Origin: Acidobacteriota bacterium
GTDB taxonomy: Bacteria; Acidobacteriota; UBA6911
Direction: 5' to 3'
DNA length: 64,000 nt
NCBI GenBank assembly: GCA_963664705.1
Contig: OY761556.1
Coordinates: forward strand, 6,112,001 to 6,176,000
Under the pieces are notes generated by a model. That model searched no databases and had not been told where the DNA came from. It saw only the letters and a list, made by a program, of their open reading frames with translations. Each line of letters starts with the position of its first letter. Position 1 is the stretch's first letter. The position numbers and the translations under genes are program-made. Below, one piece after another: positions 48,481-62,572 of the stretch.

Positions 48481-48655
48481 CGGTACCTCCTCCTCAACCT
48501 GCGAGGACCTGGATTAGGTTTCCTGACAGCCGGCAATGGCTGTCAATATATATAGACGCTTCAATGATAGCCGATTCTCAGGTGCGCGATCAGCATCTTT
48601 GTGATAATACATTGAAATCAACATATCACGGCTCGTCCGGTTGGGAGAAAACGCT

Positions 48656-50437
48656 ATGGCACAGACATCGGCTCAAGCCCGTACATCACGCACCGTAACA
48701 GTCCTTGACCCCCGTGGGCAGCCCACGGCGGTAGTGCAGCCTTTACCGCTCGCACCCAGGCTCAATACGCTGGATGGGAAGACGGTGTATATGGTGGATA
48801 TTGGGTTTGGCGGCGGCTACGACTTCCTGGAGGAAGCGGCTGGCTGGCTGTACAGAAATATTCCTGCCATCAAGATTGAGCTTCGGCATAAGCGGGGGAA
48901 TATGTTCCTCGATGATCCGGAGCTTTGGGTGGAGATAAAGGACAAGGGAGATGCCGTTATTTTCGGCGTTGGTGGCTGAGATGGCTGCACGGCGAGTGTC
49001 GCCGATCATTGCAGAGTCCTCGAAACGAAATATGGCGTTCCCACCGCTCCCATGGCCAGTGCACGATTTGCGGAGTTTGCCGCAACGGATGCCTTGAACC
49101 ACGGGATGAGTCTCCGGTTTACCTTCCCTCCTTACCCTCTCGTGGGAAGGCCTAGGGAAGTATTGCGGCAATACGTGGAAGGCAGGGATCCTGTCACGGG
49201 GAGGCCGTTGATGCCCCAGGTCGTGGATGCATTGACGCAGCCGCTGACCGAACCCGAGAAAAACCCACCGGCACGAAGGGGCGCCTCCAGGCCGCGGCTG
49301 TTGGCACCGGATACGGAAGAAAACCTGAGGCAGCTCTTTCTGGAGAATGACTGGACGGATGGACTGCCTATCATCCTGCCGACCGAAGAGCGTGTCGAGC
49401 ATATGTTGACCGGAACGGCTGCCGATCCAACCGAGGTCGTCGGGCGAATGACTATTACCACCCTCCAGGAAAAGCTGGAGTATACGGTGGAGAAGGTCGC
49501 GGTGAATGCTGTAATGGCAGGAGCCGGCCCGGAGCATTTGCCTGTAATCCTAGCCCTGGCCGCCAGCCAGGAAGGATCGATGCCGAGTTCGACGACATCC
49601 TTTGCCCGCATGGCATTCGTAAATGGGCCAGTCAGGGATGAGATTGGGATGAACTGCGGCCTGGGAGCGCTGAGCCCGTTCAATCATGCGAATGCCGTAA
49701 TCGGAAGGGCATGGACGCTGATGACCATCAATCTGGGTGATTCCAGGCTGGGCGAGACGTTCATGGGTTCGACCGGCAGCCCGATGAACTATAACAACAT
49801 GTGTTTCGCGGAAAATGAGGAAAGAAGCGTTTGGGAGCCCTATCATGTGCGCAAGGGTTTCCGGAAGGATGAGAGTGTTATCAGTATCTTCCGGGGTTGG
49901 AGCGCCATTAACAGCATGGGAGCCGCCGGCTGTTGCCGTCCGGCCCACGAAGAAATGCTGATGCTTCTGCAGGCATTCCCGGCATTGACTGGTGCGATCA
50001 CTTTTGTCATGGATCCGCTGGTTGCCAGGCATTTGAAAGAACAAGGATTCCACTCTCCACTCCAACTGGGCGAGTGGATCTCGAAAAATTTCAAGATGAC
50101 CGTCGGGCAGTACTTTGGGTCCGACCTTGTGTATTCTTTTGGCAATCCCCTTGCCAGGGACGGTGTCGAGCCGTATGCGTCCTGGTGGAAGCTGCCGAAA
50201 GATACTCTTATCGCACCCTATCTCCGGCCGGAGCTCATCGATTCCGTGGTCGTCGGCGGGGAAACCCAGGCGCTATGGTTTACCACGGACATGAATTGGA
50301 CGCAGACTCTGTCGATTGACAAATGGCGCCCCAAGACGGGCATTTATCAAAGAGATGAGCAGGCGGAACGGCGTCGCTATGCGCGTCAGAAAAGGCACGC
50401 CGCAGCCCTGAATGCCAGCGGCTACGATTTGAAGTAA
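48656..50437 (+). CDS. UGSC-family-like selenoprotein (Sec108 in U-D-G-C) fused to a WTDGLP-motif domain; single 593-aa read-through ORF
   Basis: Track ORFs 48641-48979 and 49052-50437 are in one frame separated only by TGA 48977-79. Read-through gives IFGVGG-U-DGC-TASVADHCRVLETKYGVPT. SECIS-like hairpin follows; GGAG RBS before ATG 48656. Confidence 0.85.
48980..49014 (+). promoter_or_regulatory. Putative bacterial SECIS element
   Basis: ctgca/tgcag lower stem, cggcga-GTG-tcgccg apical hairpin; the loop begins with G 16 nt after the UGA. Confidence 0.7.
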
Positions 50438-50451
50438 ACGCTGCAATACGC

Positions 50452-50484
50452 GAAATCCGCGGCTGACACAAAGCCGCGGATTTC
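50452..50484. repeat. GCCACGAATT-family variant palindrome between convergent genes
   Basis: 13-bp stem gaaatccgcggct-gacacaa-agccgcggatttc. Confidence 0.7.
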
Positions 50485-51502
50485 ATGCATTATTTTTTCC
50501 AACGATTTCGAGCTGAAATCCGCCCAGTTGATTCTGGGTGGCAAAGTAGCATGCCGTGACGGCATGATCTTTGATAGTCGCCCTGAATTCGGATTCAATG
50601 CCGGCCCTTTTCATTGCACCCACGACTTCGGCATAATCCCCCTGAATCCCGAAGCTCACATGCTGGATGCCATTTCCCTTCCTGTCCAGGAATCGTTGAT
50701 GACAGCCGCCCGGCCGTATTCCGATGGGCCGGATTACTTCAATTTGAAGATCTCCCAGAGAGCCCATTGCGAAAGCGACATCCAGGGACTCCATTTCCGG
50801 TGCCTGAACCGGTTTCTCATCCATGTAGGCATCGATAAGGTTGGGGGGGCCGTAGTCATAGGTCCAGCCTTTTATGCCCAATAGCCTCTCGAATCCCTGG
50901 GCCGCGCTCTTCTCATCCTTTACCACGAGGCCAACCTGGTTAATCTTTTTTCCACCTGAAAGGATGGGATGGTCCATTCTGGCAACGCCGGGGCCATCAG
51001 GCAGCACAACGCCAACCTGTTCGATATATCTCTTGCCCGATGCGCCCTCCGGGCTGGCAAACTCAATCCTGCACCCGAGTTCGTCGGTTGTATCCATTAT
51101 TGAAAAGCGCGAGCTATGATCACAATCTCCCTGCATTTCGAGGCTGACGCCCGCATTGGTCAGCGCGCTCACCACGGCATCGTGATTTTGCAGCGTGCCC
51201 AGACCGATTGTGTAGAAACCTTCGCCGCTTTGCTCGAGGAATTCCGAGTAGGCGCATCGGCCCGATACCGGTTGGATCAACTTAATGGACCGGCCTCCAA
51301 AGTTTCCGATGGCCATGCGCATATCACAGCCTTCATCCGTTTGATGATTGTGAAGGATGGTATTGCTGAGACGAAGGGAGTAGAGCTTCAGGCGTACTCC
51401 AAAAATCTGGGCAAAGCGTTTGGCCGTTTTCTCGGCATCCTTAACCACCACGCTGAACTGAACAATCTTTTCATGACTCAGATCTACAACGCTGTTGCCC
51501 AT
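50483..51502 (-). CDS. Tandem VOC/glyoxalase-superfamily protein (methylmalonyl-CoA epimerase-like)
   Basis: Two repeats: QFSVVVKD...IKLIQP...FLEQSGEG and QVGLVVKD...QIEVIRP...FLDRKGNGIQHVSF...QLEIV. Confidence 0.8.
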   Translation of the reverse strand: MGNSVVDLSHEKIVQFSVVVKDAEKTAKRFAQIFGVRLKLYSLRLSNTILHNHQTDEGCDMRMAIGNFGGRSIKLIQPVSGRCAYSEFLEQSGEGFYTIGLGTLQNHDAVVSALTNAGVSLEMQGDCDHSSRFSIMDTTDELGCRIEFASPEGASGKRYIEQVGVVLPDGPGVARMDHPILSGGKKINQVGLVVKDEKSAAQGFERLLGIKGWTYDYGPPNLIDAYMDEKPVQAPEMESLDVAFAMGSLGDLQIEVIRPIGIRPGGCHQRFLDRKGNGIQHVSFGIQGDYAEVVGAMKRAGIESEFRATIKDHAVTACYFATQNQLGGFQLEIVGKNNA

Positions 51503-51670
51503 GAAGCCTCCCTGACTCGAATAATTGATACACCGGATAGAATGGATCTATACTCTCCGCAGCAATACTTGCTGTCAATAGAACTGAATTGATTTGTTTG
51601 CGGGAGTCTATGGAATTCGTGGCCGGCCTTTTCCACGCTTTTTTCTCACGGACGTCAACGAGGTGCCTTT

Positions 51671-53461
51671 ATGGCTAACAGTTTATACTCACTCCGCCCC
51701 GACCATTCTTCTTCCGGAATCACCGGGGCACAGATATTTGCAAAACTATGCAAGGATGAAAACTTGCCCGCCCTTTTCTGTGCAGCCGGTAATTACCACA
51801 TCATCAATGCTATCTCGGAGACGGGGATCCCTTGCTACGGTGGTCGAACCGAAGGTGGGATGTGTGCCGCCGCGGATGGATTTGCCAGGGTGACCGGCGA
51901 AGCGGTCGCCTGTTCGGGGACTGAAGGCCCGGGGCTTACCCATATGATGATGAATATTGCCTGTGCCCATGCAGCCAATAGTCCGCTGCTCGTGCTGGCC
52001 AGCAATTCAAGCCTGGCTGCTGAAGACTGCTACAGTTTCATTCAATTCATGTACCAGCAGCCGCTGACGGAAGGCATGCGGAAATATGGGAAGAGAATCA
52101 CCGTGCCAAGCCGGATCTATGAATATGGCGCTGCCGCTTTCAGAAATCTGAAAACCGGCGTACCGGACGTCGTGCACCTCGATTTTCCTCTCGAGGTCGT
52201 GACCCATCGTTTTGCAGATGCGTCCGAACTGGAGCGCTCCTACGACAAAGGGCGATACCGCAGCGATTCCCGGGCGTATCCGGGCAGCAAGGAGCTCCAA
52301 CAGGCTATCGAAATGATCAGCAAGGCCGAACGCCCCGTCCTGATTGCCGGACACGGGATTTTTGTGCGCAAAGCCTGCGACGCGCTGCTGATGGCCGCGG
52401 AAAAACACGAAATGGCTGTGGTGGGTTCGGGCCCGGTTCGGGGACACTTTCCCGATGACCATCGCCTGTCCGGGAGCATGTCCAACGAAGCTTTGATGAA
52501 TGCGGACCTGGTGGTTTTCGTCGGGCAGTACTCGATGCCGCTGCCTGAAGAATGGACATTGCCGCGTGGCGTGAAGACCATACGCGTGCATCCGGAGCAG
52601 GGAGACCTGGGGCGCAACTGGCCCGTCGATCTGGGAATCGTGAGCGACGAAGCTGTATTCATGGAGGCGCTGGCAAACGGACTTCCAGGTAAAAAAAGGG
52701 ATTCCTGGGTGGGGGAGATTGCTGCTGCAAGGCGCCGATGGGAAGAAGCCCAGATGGGACTCTATACCCAGTTTCTCAAATACAGCCGCGATACCAATTC
52801 GCTTCATCCTTTTGTTCTATGCAAAGAAGTCCATGATTTCCTGTACAAAGGCGATATCGATCCCAAACAGACGGTCACCGGGTGGGGCGGAAACATGATC
52901 GGGTTCGGAGCCATGCGATGGCTGCGTGCCAACAGGCCCGGGCAGGAAGTCACGGTCGTGTACCAGTTCGGTCCCATGGGACCGGATCTTGCCATGATGA
53001 TGGGTCCAGCGGTGGCTATTCAGCAAGGCATCGGGCCGCATGCTGCCTATCAGGGCGCACCTGTTGTGGTTGTGACCGGAGATGCCGGCATGGCGTACAG
53101 CCTTCTGGAACTGGATACTTTTGTGCGATACAAGCTCCCGGTAATCTGCATTGTATATAACAATGACTGCTGGGGCACTTTTACCTTGGCAACGGATACC
53201 CCCGGGGCGTTGCATATGTATATGTTCCAGGAAGGCCTGCGCTACGACAAGATGGCCGAGCAGCTTGGCGTTCGAGGCGAGTACGTGCGGACCCCCGAGG
53301 ATCTACGGGCGGCTTTGAAACGCAGCTACGATGCCGCGGGAAGACAGGGGCTCTCGACGCTGATCAACTGCCAGGGGATTAAGGAATTCAACCTGCCTGA
53401 AGCGTATCCACCAGGACTGGATTTTTCGCCGGAGCCTGGAATCGGAGCCATTCGCCATTAG
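51671..53461 (+). CDS. Thiamine pyrophosphate-dependent enzyme (acetolactate synthase / 2-hydroxyacyl-CoA lyase / oxalyl-CoA decarboxylase superfamily)
   Basis: RTEGG..AADGFAR, GPGLT, AERPVLIAG, TPP motif GDAG...NN; GAGGT RBS. Confidence 0.88.
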   Translation: MANSLYSLRPDHSSSGITGAQIFAKLCKDENLPALFCAAGNYHIINAISETGIPCYGGRTEGGMCAAADGFARVTGEAVACSGTEGPGLTHMMMNIACAHAANSPLLVLASNSSLAAEDCYSFIQFMYQQPLTEGMRKYGKRITVPSRIYEYGAAAFRNLKTGVPDVVHLDFPLEVVTHRFADASELERSYDKGRYRSDSRAYPGSKELQQAIEMISKAERPVLIAGHGIFVRKACDALLMAAEKHEMAVVGSGPVRGHFPDDHRLSGSMSNEALMNADLVVFVGQYSMPLPEEWTLPRGVKTIRVHPEQGDLGRNWPVDLGIVSDEAVFMEALANGLPGKKRDSWVGEIAAARRRWEEAQMGLYTQFLKYSRDTNSLHPFVLCKEVHDFLYKGDIDPKQTVTGWGGNMIGFGAMRWLRANRPGQEVTVVYQFGPMGPDLAMMMGPAVAIQQGIGPHAAYQGAPVVVVTGDAGMAYSLLELDTFVRYKLPVICIVYNNDCWGTFTLATDTPGALHMYMFQEGLRYDKMAEQLGVRGEYVRTPEDLRAALKRSYDAAGRQGLSTLINCQGIKEFNLPEAYPPGLDFSPEPGIGAIRH

Positions 53462-53532: not shown

Positions 53533-54549
53533 TCACCTGCCGGAATCCGGAGTCCAGCCATTGCCGAGTCCATAAGGCAGCGTCACAAACGGCGCAGCCT
53601 CCACGTGGTAAATCAGGCCTTTCCTGATTCCGAAGGTTTCCATGGTAACCAGGTTTTGCAGCATCCCCGGAGGATCGTCGGGTTTGGCGCCACGGCGCGT
53701 GCCGTCGTGGACAAAGAGCGGGAATGTTGCAACGATCTGCTTCTCTTCGTCGACCACCAGGACTCGTCGCGGGCGGATGTGCTTCATGTAGGCGAATGTC
53801 TTTTCGTTGATCTGCTGTTCGCAAGTCAACATGCTGAATCGCAGCATTTCCCGGCCTTGCGGTGTGTCCGCGGTTGGCATGAATGGTGCCGGCATCATCC
53901 GACCGCCGGGCGGCGCATTATTCACCGTCTGATAGCCATTTTCGTGACGGACGCACTCTTTGGCAAAGGCGCCGATTTTACCGCTGTCCCCTTCCAATGC
54001 GTCAAAATAGGAATTGGCAACGCGGATGAGCATATCCCTTGAGGATCTTTCGGCCGGCGGAATGTCAGTGGTCAGAATCGGCTCCGGCGTGGTCAGGAGC
54101 GGTATTGCCGCATCGTTGATGCTGCGATCGTAGAGCTGCTCGATTTCCTGGATCCTTCCCCTGTCAACCTTCAGTCGAACCGCGACCAGCGCATTCTGCC
54201 CGCCGATCTTCAATCTGGCTTGCAGCGCAACCTGGCCGGCATCCGGATCCGCAATATAAATCCTGAAGGTCGTGGGTTCCACTTTGGATCGCCAAAGCAT
54301 GCCCTCTCCGACGCTCATTACCCCCGTGTTTTCCGTCATCCGCACGTCGATAGTCATCGGTGGAACGACCTTGGGATCGTGCTTATAAATAGCATCCATA
54401 TAGCCATTCATAATGCCGATCAGACAGTTTCGGTCACACGGCTTCTGATTTGCCGGATTCCAGTCCGGTTCACCTGCGACCGCGGGATTTGAAGCTACGC
54501 AGCAGAACAACAAGATCATTCCAAGTGCAAGTAAGTATGGTGCCCGCAT
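53533..54549 (-). CDS. Secreted protein of unknown function (CDRxCL family, possibly tandem NTF2-like fold)
   Basis: Signal peptide; CDRNCL, TEN, ANSYF, CVRHENG, IRPRRVLVVDEE; paralog at 61226-62326. Confidence 0.7.
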   Translation of the reverse strand: MRAPYLLALGMILLFCCVASNPAVAGEPDWNPANQKPCDRNCLIGIMNGYMDAIYKHDPKVVPPMTIDVRMTENTGVMSVGEGMLWRSKVEPTTFRIYIADPDAGQVALQARLKIGGQNALVAVRLKVDRGRIQEIEQLYDRSINDAAIPLLTTPEPILTTDIPPAERSSRDMLIRVANSYFDALEGDSGKIGAFAKECVRHENGYQTVNNAPPGGRMMPAPFMPTADTPQGREMLRFSMLTCEQQINEKTFAYMKHIRPRRVLVVDEEKQIVATFPLFVHDGTRRGAKPDDPPGMLQNLVTMETFGIRKGLIYHVEAAPFVTLPYGLGNGWTPDSGR

Positions 54550-61225: not shown

Positions 61226-62326
61226 CTACTTCGTGGCGTCCCGCGCTGCGCTCGACAGCCCGTCCTGCCAGGAACTCCATCCCGAATTCATCCCGTAAGG
61301 GCATTGCTGCAGAACCGCTTCAATCCTGCGAATCTTGCCTTTTTCAATTCTGAACAGTTCTGCGATCTGCCAGGTCCACGGATTTATCGGGCCGGCCGTC
61401 ACAGTTCGTCCATCTTTTGTCTGGAATGTCCGGTCTTTCCCAAGCGCGTGATCAAAGAACCCGAATGCGTAAACCAGGCCGCGCTCCTGATCGACGGCAA
61501 CAAACCGCCGGTCTCGAATCCTCCAGACAAAGTGAATGAGGCCGGATTCGAACTGTTCTCTGCAGCCCCAGGCCCCCGAATAGGAACTCGAAGTCTTGGG
61601 ATCCGGCTTGGTCTGGCCTTCACGCAGCGGAGCATTTGTGCTCTGAGACCCGTTTTCAAAGCGTTCGCAGTCATCGGTGAATGGGTAGGTTCCTGTGCCG
61701 TCAAGCCCCTTTCCGTCGTTCTTTTCCATTCCCCTGAAGTACATGTCGGCAACGCGGATGAGATCGGCACGCGACATCCTTTCGGCCGGCGGGATCACAT
61801 CGGTAAACAGATGATGGGGGCTTCCCATTTTTTCAATGTTTGCCGCCGGTCCCGCTGGAGCCGCAGGCGCTGCGCCCCGCGCCGCCCCTGCACCACCCAG
61901 CTGGGCAGCCGGGCGGATTACCAGGGTCTCGATTTCGGTAATCTGGCCACTCTTTACCTTCAGTCGCAGCGCGATAGGTGATGCGGTGCCTTCCTTTGTG
62001 TTTCCTTCTTCCACGATCGTCCCGAGAAATGTGACCTGCCCTGCTTCCGGGTCGGTGACAAACAGCTTGTATTTGCCTTTGCCGGTCATGATCTTCCAGT
62101 GTCCGTCGGGAAGTGGAAGCCGGACACCGTTCTCGGTGAACTTTACGTCTTTGGACAGCGGCAGCAGGGAAGGATCATGCGCGATCGCGGCGTCCAGGTA
62201 TTTATCTACGAAACCTTCCAGGCAAGCGCGATCGCAGGCGGCCGGCTTGCTTTGCGCGCTCATCCTGACAGTGGTAATGCTGACGAGCAGCAGAGCTGTC
62301 GTTACAAATACAAAAAATCTCTTCAT
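61226..62326 (-). CDS. Secreted protein of unknown function (CDRxCL family paralog)
   Basis: Signal peptide MKRFFVF; CDRACL, FTENG, ADMYF, CERFENG, IRDRRFVAVDQE. Confidence 0.7.
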   Translation of the reverse strand: MKRFFVFVTTALLLVSITTVRMSAQSKPAACDRACLEGFVDKYLDAAIAHDPSLLPLSKDVKFTENGVRLPLPDGHWKIMTGKGKYKLFVTDPEAGQVTFLGTIVEEGNTKEGTASPIALRLKVKSGQITEIETLVIRPAAQLGGAGAARGAAPAAPAGPAANIEKMGSPHHLFTDVIPPAERMSRADLIRVADMYFRGMEKNDGKGLDGTGTYPFTDDCERFENGSQSTNAPLREGQTKPDPKTSSSYSGAWGCREQFESGLIHFVWRIRDRRFVAVDQERGLVYAFGFFDHALGKDRTFQTKDGRTVTAGPINPWTWQIAELFRIEKGKIRRIEAVLQQCPYGMNSGWSSWQDGLSSAARDATK

Positions 62327-62572
62327 TGCGTACCTGCCTTTCATTTGAACAAAAAGAAATGGATAGCGGTAAAAAGTAAATCCTCCTCCCAAGAATATTT
62401 GTACTGATTGCGCAGATTATGTATTAACCTGCAACTGCTTCACAATTCTTTTCACAAAACATGGTTAGCTTCCTGCATTTTTAGGGATCTATTGTTTTTC
62501 GAGTTCCAAATGTTTGAGAAGACATGCCGGCCCTGGCGCTAAGGCGCGATGAGCTTAAGGAGGGAATTTGAA

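Follow-up and report, generated by a model that had tools for sequence, protein, structure and literature searches.

An in-frame UGA very probably hides a UGSC/Unknown_1 fusion selenoprotein in an Acidobacteriota genome with 31 selenocysteine copies of the family

A UGA codon within a 64,000-nucleotide stretch of an Acidobacteriota genome (GCA_963664705.1, contig OY761556.1, forward-strand positions 6,112,001 to 6,176,000; hereafter the window, whose own numbering is used unless another locus is named) is almost certainly read through as selenocysteine (Sec), giving one protein of 593 amino acids (aa). Sequence, orthologs and a structural model support a single gene (48656..50437, plus strand) with Sec at residue 108, in which a UGSC domain is fused to a domain called Unknown_1. 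Taken alone, the gene is an ordinary new member of an already published fusion: UGSC/Unknown_1 has been in print since 2008 (PMC2398784, as drawn in its Fig. S1A), and the UGSC selenoprotein is listed as uncharacterised in PMC13188914. The same genome carries 31 Sec genes of this family, probably a large array of selenium-dependent reductases that differ in substrate. We found no publication on this 31-copy expansion, on the predicted export of its members or on the link to PrdB and GrdB described below, in a search that stopped short of subscription journals and of survey supplementary tables, which could hold per-genome UGSC counts.

Evidence for selenocysteine read-through

The frame from 48656 to 50437 has a sole internal stop, TGA at 48977-79, in the context V-G-G-U-D-G-C. 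A preliminary description of this DNA had proposed that two open reading frames (ORFs) sharing one frame are joined across this codon into a 593-aa protein with a UDGC motif, and the sequence bears this out. The motif (48977..48988, +) runs from the TGA (Sec108) to Cys111 and lies where a predicted helix begins, following the third core strand. The downstream ORF, of 461 aa, begins at an internal ATG (49052..49054, +; Met133), from which gene callers begin a spurious second gene. A sequence check found no purine-rich stretch upstream of this ATG, as had been suspected of its ribosome-binding site (RBS), and an RBS-like GGGAG stands instead 8 nt before the ATG at 48656 (48643..48647, +; a consensus match only). 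That annotation would split the gene had also been foreseen: the best 120 of 6395 database hits are all downstream pieces of 407-479 aa. Gene callers hide the UGSC/Unknown_1 Sec genes, each being cut in two. The sequence itself recurs without change: two runs on a single sample, possibly the source of the window, gave contigs that match the whole stretch with zero differences, and a contig from a second study matches 48915-48979, again with zero differences.

The UGA codon is conserved. From 33 loci examined, removal of six duplicates and six distant sequences left 21 distinct orthologs (62-100% identity), and every one of them carries TGA as codon 108. The genome itself holds 35 full-length paralogs, 31 of them with TGA at the aligned codon, each followed by xxC (Cys at +3 in 31/31), and the four non-Sec paralogs have other residues at the Sec site, none of them Cys. 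A check of homologs at position 108, suggested at the outset, returned TGA in the 21 orthologs and also a DNA-encoded Cys (CSNC) in four alphaproteobacterial loci. Among 150 cluster representatives, the junction is spanned in one frame by 36, with CxxC in nine and other residues in 27. In the alphaproteobacterial homologs (L036-L039), UGSC is a gene of its own and carries the CSNC; it ends in a TGA at the point where Unknown_1 starts in another frame.

Just downstream of the UGA lies a hairpin resembling a selenocysteine insertion sequence (SECIS). Its upper part, CGGCGA-GTG-TCGCCG (48990..49004, +), has a 6-bp stem and a GUG loop that starts 16 nt after the UGA, as first described. The bacterial (bSECIS) model in the Fig. 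2 legend of PMC13188914 specifies a loop of 3-9 nt with G in one of its first two positions, a distance of 16-37 nt from the UGA, a stem of 4-16 bp and a minimum free energy of at most -7.5, and the hairpin falls within these constraints (6 bp, GUG, 16 nt, -15.9). In the orthologs, the third positions of A113, V115 and A116, all in the upper stem, are invariant, as are none of the other 107 four-fold sites (0/107), and the S114 codon is AGT in every ortholog. An extended hairpin (48985..49014, +) had been proposed as well; its lower stem, CTGCA/TGCAG (48985-89/49010-14), is present in the window but shows no conservation among the orthologs. Folding energy (-14 to -16 kcal/mol) is by itself weak evidence for a SECIS, because the z-score shrinks from -3.1 in a tight 32-nt window to -1.7 in two wider ones and +0.5 at 80 nt. 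A simplified SECIS-pattern test, with a 16-22-nt spacing window set after the data were seen, passes 23/31 UGAs of the family, 29/909 true TGA stops, 63/1345 Cys codons and 0/3 non-Sec paralogs. Against synonymous shuffles the effect is modest: the 39 nt 3' of the UGA fold better than expected in 24 of the 31 copies (mean z -0.84).

The genome (6.89 Mb in one contig, 98% complete, 6% contamination) has the machinery needed for decoding. Looking for selA, selB, selC and selD, as recommended earlier, yielded two of each: two selA genes (45% identity), two selB, two selD above the cut-off and two long-arm tRNA-Sec genes, one of which was scanned with Rfam and confirmed. In addition, selA is present in 27 of 29 other genomes of the genus. 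The second sel set forms a compact cluster of selB, selA, selD and tRNA-Sec (G000:C1:3072596-3079091; L002, L004, L005). Beside it lie a putative Sec-containing methyltransferase-like gene and putative corrinoid/methyltransferase-like genes. In the SelD of this cluster (545 aa), Cys occupies the Sec site, the N terminus is extended by a Cys-rich stretch and the C-terminal part matches the AhpD core. A third ARAGORN tRNA-SeC call (G000:C1:1625651-1625722), 72 nt long and without a long variable arm, is probably a pseudo-tRNA.

The opposite reading is that the UGA is a real stop, so that the locus would be a pseudogene or would encode two separate proteins. Split two-gene forms do occur in other lineages, and TGA often serves as the stop codon here, ending 906 of 2872 long genes in the genome. 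However, the TGA lies inside the UGSC domain and not between the domains, the same codon followed by xxC is kept throughout the 31 paralogs and 21 orthologs, the hairpin shows no silent-site variation and no component of the Sec machinery is missing. We regard a real stop as highly improbable; selenocysteine read-through, as originally proposed, stands on the ortholog and paralog codons and the complete sel genes.

Domain architecture and predicted fold

The first domain (residues 15-176; 48698..49183, +) matches the UGSC family PF24696 at 70 bits against a cut-off of 25, covering model positions 1-161 of 172, and this secures the UGSC affinity suggested from its N terminus. It falls short of the UGSC equivalog NF041046 (49.9 bits, cut-off 125), for which four paralogs score 44-93 bits and three fused homologs 52-93 bits. 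Its motif is UDGC and not UGSC, the literal UGSC being present in 7 of the 31 Sec paralogs.

The second domain, Unknown_1 (approximately residues 210-560; 49283..50335, +), is the predicted substrate-binding part. It matched no family in Pfam or NCBIfam, and a search of the remaining proteome gave no remote homolog. Its conserved residues are D235, T243, S312, N346, R351 and E386, with no conserved Cys or His among them. The preliminary description had pictured the UGSC part as fused to a DWTDGLP domain with a vicinal Cys pair. The motif (49349-69) and the pair, Cys426-Cys427 (49931..49936, +), are both present; the pair is no feature of the family, occurring in 9/10 genus orthologs and 0/11 orthologs outside the genus. 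Since it is restricted to the genus, and the 35 paralogs do not conserve it either, we rejected it as a family redox site. Comparison with the figure in PMC2398784 places the UxxC at the same position, and residues 282-324 match the published block AVNAVMAG...NGP by eye, whereas the Unknown_1 Cys highlighted there in 2008 corresponds to Ala290 in the window protein.

An AlphaFold model of the protein (pLDDT 94.8, pTM 0.93) places the UxxC within a parallel alpha/beta domain, and the pTM supports the two domains forming one folded unit, as modelled. The best structural matches of the UxxC domain are flavodoxin-like folds. The two structural-match (VIA) lists cover residues ~37-205 only and hardly sample Unknown_1, for which we claim no new fold. 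Foldseek gave no match at E <= 0.001, and PDB sequence searches gave none at E up to 0.1. Weak Foldseek likeness to class I fumarase (TM 0.15-0.17, rmsd ~18) was set aside, being absent from the 50 VIA rows shown.

The motif had first been read as thioredoxin-like, and the 2008 paper likewise supposed a Trx-like fold. The prediction instead favours a flavodoxin-like alpha/beta fold, with a profile related to PrdB and GrdB. Like the thioredoxin-fold UxxC proteins (Trx-, Prx- and Grx-like), the window protein has a U-x-x-C pair at a helix start; unlike them, it matches no thioredoxin-type Pfam family, PF24696 being the only match at E up to 0.1, and the best matches of its model are flavodoxin-like.

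Relationship to PrdB and GrdB

We compared a profile of the UGSC domain (67 rows) with one of 24 PrdB/GrdB-like proteins by hhalign. The latter came from 24 of 25 fetched loci, drawn from the 49/201 phylum genomes that match PF07355, and the UGA was read through where one followed the match. The profiles align over 94 columns around the UxxC, Sec on Sec, with a probability of 89.9 (E 1.7e-6); a second value was 88.4, over 93-94 columns. By comparison, a receiver domain scored 1.1 and 40 random families scored at most 7.9, and with the query cysteines masked the probability was still 71. These alignments indicate that residues ~88-196 of the UxxC domain are homologous to the Sec region of PrdB/GrdB. 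Unknown_1 shows no likeness to GrdB or to the UGSC domain.

The window protein is nonetheless not a member of PF07355, which it does not match; that family comprises the bond-breaking selenoprotein B subunits PrdB, of D-proline reductase, and GrdB/F/H, of glycine/sarcosine/betaine reductase. In contrast to those proteins, its UxxC domain is fused to an unrelated 350-residue domain, most of its paralogs have signal-peptide-like N termini, and its genome has neither a PF07355 match nor the pyruvoyl proprotein GrdE/PrdA (PF09338). In the phylum, PF09338 was matched in 1/201 genomes. The PF07355 matches themselves (L083-L106) are mostly short PrdB-like genes, and with GrdE/PrdA so rare the phylum appears to hold many orphan PrdB-like proteins.

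The mechanism proposed for PrdB in PMC3091704 involves selenolate attack on carbon, formation of a selenoether, its resolution by Cys to an Se-S bond and re-reduction. We tentatively read the window protein as a single-chain, selenium-dependent 'protein B'-type reductase with thioredoxin-like recycling, a reading that is plausible though short of probable. Unknown_1 would bind a small organic substrate next to Sec108, in place of the GrdE/PrdA partner. An activated carbon would then come under attack by the Sec108 selenolate and lose its leaving group (C-N, C-O, C-S or C-halogen). The product would be a selenoether, which Cys111 would resolve to an Se-S bond with release of the reduced product; a thioredoxin-like protein would re-reduce that bond. 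The paralogs would have diverged in substrate, with most of them working outside the cytoplasm. For grdB, PMC10838667 describes multi-copy, substrate-specific sets, with eight copies in one strain, and a predicted C-F cleavage. The link to PrdB/GrdB replaces a vague redox role by a mechanism that can be tested. The window protein, a single chain with a confident model that is predicted to be soluble and cytoplasmic, would be a good test object.

Expansion of the family and predicted export

The family makes up 31 of at least 39 predicted Sec genes in the genome. The other eight candidates came from a noisy genome-wide screen, dominated by antisense hits and used only for cases recognised by eye, together with the selD search, and their identities are putative, assigned by motif. 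That one family in a single-contig genome should hold 31 Sec genes is striking beside the whole-selenoproteome records of 57 and 63 mentioned in PMC13188914 and of 46 in PMC12013277. The Olavius dataset has one UGSC sequence (PMC1976440).

The paralogs have a median identity of 32% and exceed 90% in only 3/595 pairs. An assembly artefact was rejected as the source of the expansion on this ground and because the expansion is genus-wide. All 18 genus relatives searched gave 9-43 matches (matches, not copy numbers), and an N-domain search in four relatives gave 16, 14, 46 and 7 matches, with TGA inside 74 of the 83. Among other genomes of the class, 2/12 matched, with two matches each. Sampling the phylum gave matches in 12 of 150 other genomes, never more than four in any one, an undercount since at most nine candidates per genome were scored.

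In a FastTree phylogeny, copies from the genome fall into several clades mixed with outside sequences. A single recent burst was rejected when one clade was enforced for 14 of the 35 copies against five outside rows (p-AU 2e-9). Because the copies span several clades and the one-clade test failed, the phylogeny indicates that old subfamilies were collected or kept, some being duplicated later. The window protein groups with its genus orthologs, in one clade with Terriglobia orthologs and three paralogs, and its orthologs are retained throughout the genus as well as in Terriglobia. At two Terriglobia loci (L023:6685-8575 and L026:6816-8576), a second paralog follows the ortholog directly in tandem.

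Signal-peptide-like N termini were called for 27/35 paralogs and 26/31 Sec copies, by a hydrophobicity rule applied to automatically picked start codons. On this basis most paralogs are predicted to act outside the cytoplasm. One further, divergent UGSC paralog (L058:4001-5830), located just after a molybdopterin oxidoreductase gene, scores marginally for a Tat signal (17.0 bits against a cut-off of 16.7). The window protein and its genus orthologs lack a hydrophobic N-terminal stretch, and it is probably a cytoplasmic member.

Partners, neighbourhoods and competing readings

UGSC and Unknown_1 are separate, mostly adjacent genes in 10 of the 12 matching phylum genomes. In these split systems, Unknown_1 carries an N-terminal AhpC-TSA/Redoxin domain in at least five of the eight genomes fetched (a count from selected ORFs, with three of the five positive genomes sharing a genus), and also in P0258. 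The thioredoxin-like domain is there a separate module fused to Unknown_1, in contrast to thioredoxin-fold UxxC proteins. These fusions provide the best evidence that the family may turn over with a thioredoxin-like reductant.

The same redoxin fusions could also point to general redox maintenance, the role implied by the preliminary description's 'redox protein', in which the UxxC would reduce peroxides, sulfoxides or protein disulfides and exported copies would protect the envelope of an anaerobe. Retention of the UxxC in 31/31 Sec copies agrees with such a role. GrdB, too, reportedly has peroxidase activity. The literature places UGSC among thiol oxidoreductase-like proteins. However, the model matches flavodoxin-like folds without a thioredoxin-type Pfam match, and a conserved 350-residue second domain with 35 divergent paralogs would exceed what a generic peroxidase needs, substrate diversification fitting better. 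We consider redox maintenance somewhat unlikely.

Binding or trapping, in place of catalysed reduction, was also considered: the two domains would close on a ligand, be it organic, a metal or a metalloid, that Sec binds or fixes covalently, and the protein would serve in uptake, sensing or group transfer. Every Sec copy keeps the resolving Cys, the redoxin fusions argue for turnover, the homology to PrdB/GrdB points to catalysis and the genes next to the paralogs showed no ABC permease pattern, all of which makes this reading unlikely.

Among the exported paralogs, one group goes with a secreted family of ~190 aa, one member of which matches DUF4352. Eight of its nine copies in the genome adjoin a paralog (for example G000:C1:2635424-2635996, L049). 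The family was found in 26/29 other genus genomes, with a paralog within 1.5 kb at 26 of 28 fetched loci, and we propose it as a putative partner of the exported paralogs; the window gene has none. The ninth copy (G000:C1:3455624-3456166), with no paralog beside it, is 6 kb away from selA. Of 20 hand-picked genomes of the genus, 17 likewise have a copy within 7 kb of selA, which may be plain synteny. A likely operon at G000:C1:6756400-6760421 (L066) combines a protein with several CxxCH motifs, a UxC selenoprotein candidate that is probably DUF1573-like, a USSC paralog and its secreted partner.

Among 130 genes flanking the paralogs, aldehyde:ferredoxin oxidoreductases (4 of the 17 in the genome), carboxylesterases (3/16) and molybdoenzymes (3/18) are over-represented in a post hoc, uncorrected count, which suggests catabolic islands. 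At the window-ortholog loci, pepD and a glyoxalase-like gene each occur in 2/20, and a LysR/ilv context recurs in the Terriglobia loci.

Several points weigh against a 'protein B'-type reductase. Many family members (4/35 paralogs and 27/36 junction-spanning representatives) cannot use selenolate chemistry, because they lack U/CxxC. The means by which glycine and proline reductases activate the carbonyl are missing, because the genome has neither PF07355 nor PF09338 and Unknown_1 is unlike GrdE, showing no similarity to the one GrdE-like protein compared, a single sequence (0.67%). Homology does not fix chemistry, and the peroxidase activity reported for GrdB is a case in point against the proposal. 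The window gene has no fused redoxin, and no conserved functional neighbours of its ortholog were seen at the 20 loci.

More speculatively, the genus could run an undescribed selenium-based reductive catabolism, largely extracytoplasmic. Its enzymes would number in the tens, each a single 'protein B'-like chain in which a new domain for substrate binding takes over from GrdE/PrdA, and each would break a bond of its own (C-N, C-O, C-S or C-halogen) in dissolved organic matter. This wider picture is improbable as it stands; if true, one family would account for most of the cell's selenoproteome, and a long-orphan, very common protein, UGSC, would be explained.

Other features of the window

Between the gene and a convergent glyoxalase-like gene lies a strong inverted repeat (50450..50488, no strand assigned; -25.6 kcal/mol), likely a terminator, which was not among the calls of the terminator scan. 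The segment after the gene (50483-53461) contains a gene with a double glyoxalase domain and a divergent TPP-enzyme gene.

A second large expansion in the genome comprises 28 proteins, most of which look secreted. They share an N-terminal C-x-R-x-C-L motif and are ~275-410 aa long, save one of 609. Two members lie in the window on the minus strand (53533-54549 and 61226-62392), and the window copy gave no Pfam or NCBIfam match. Four members of this second family adjoin UGSC paralogs.
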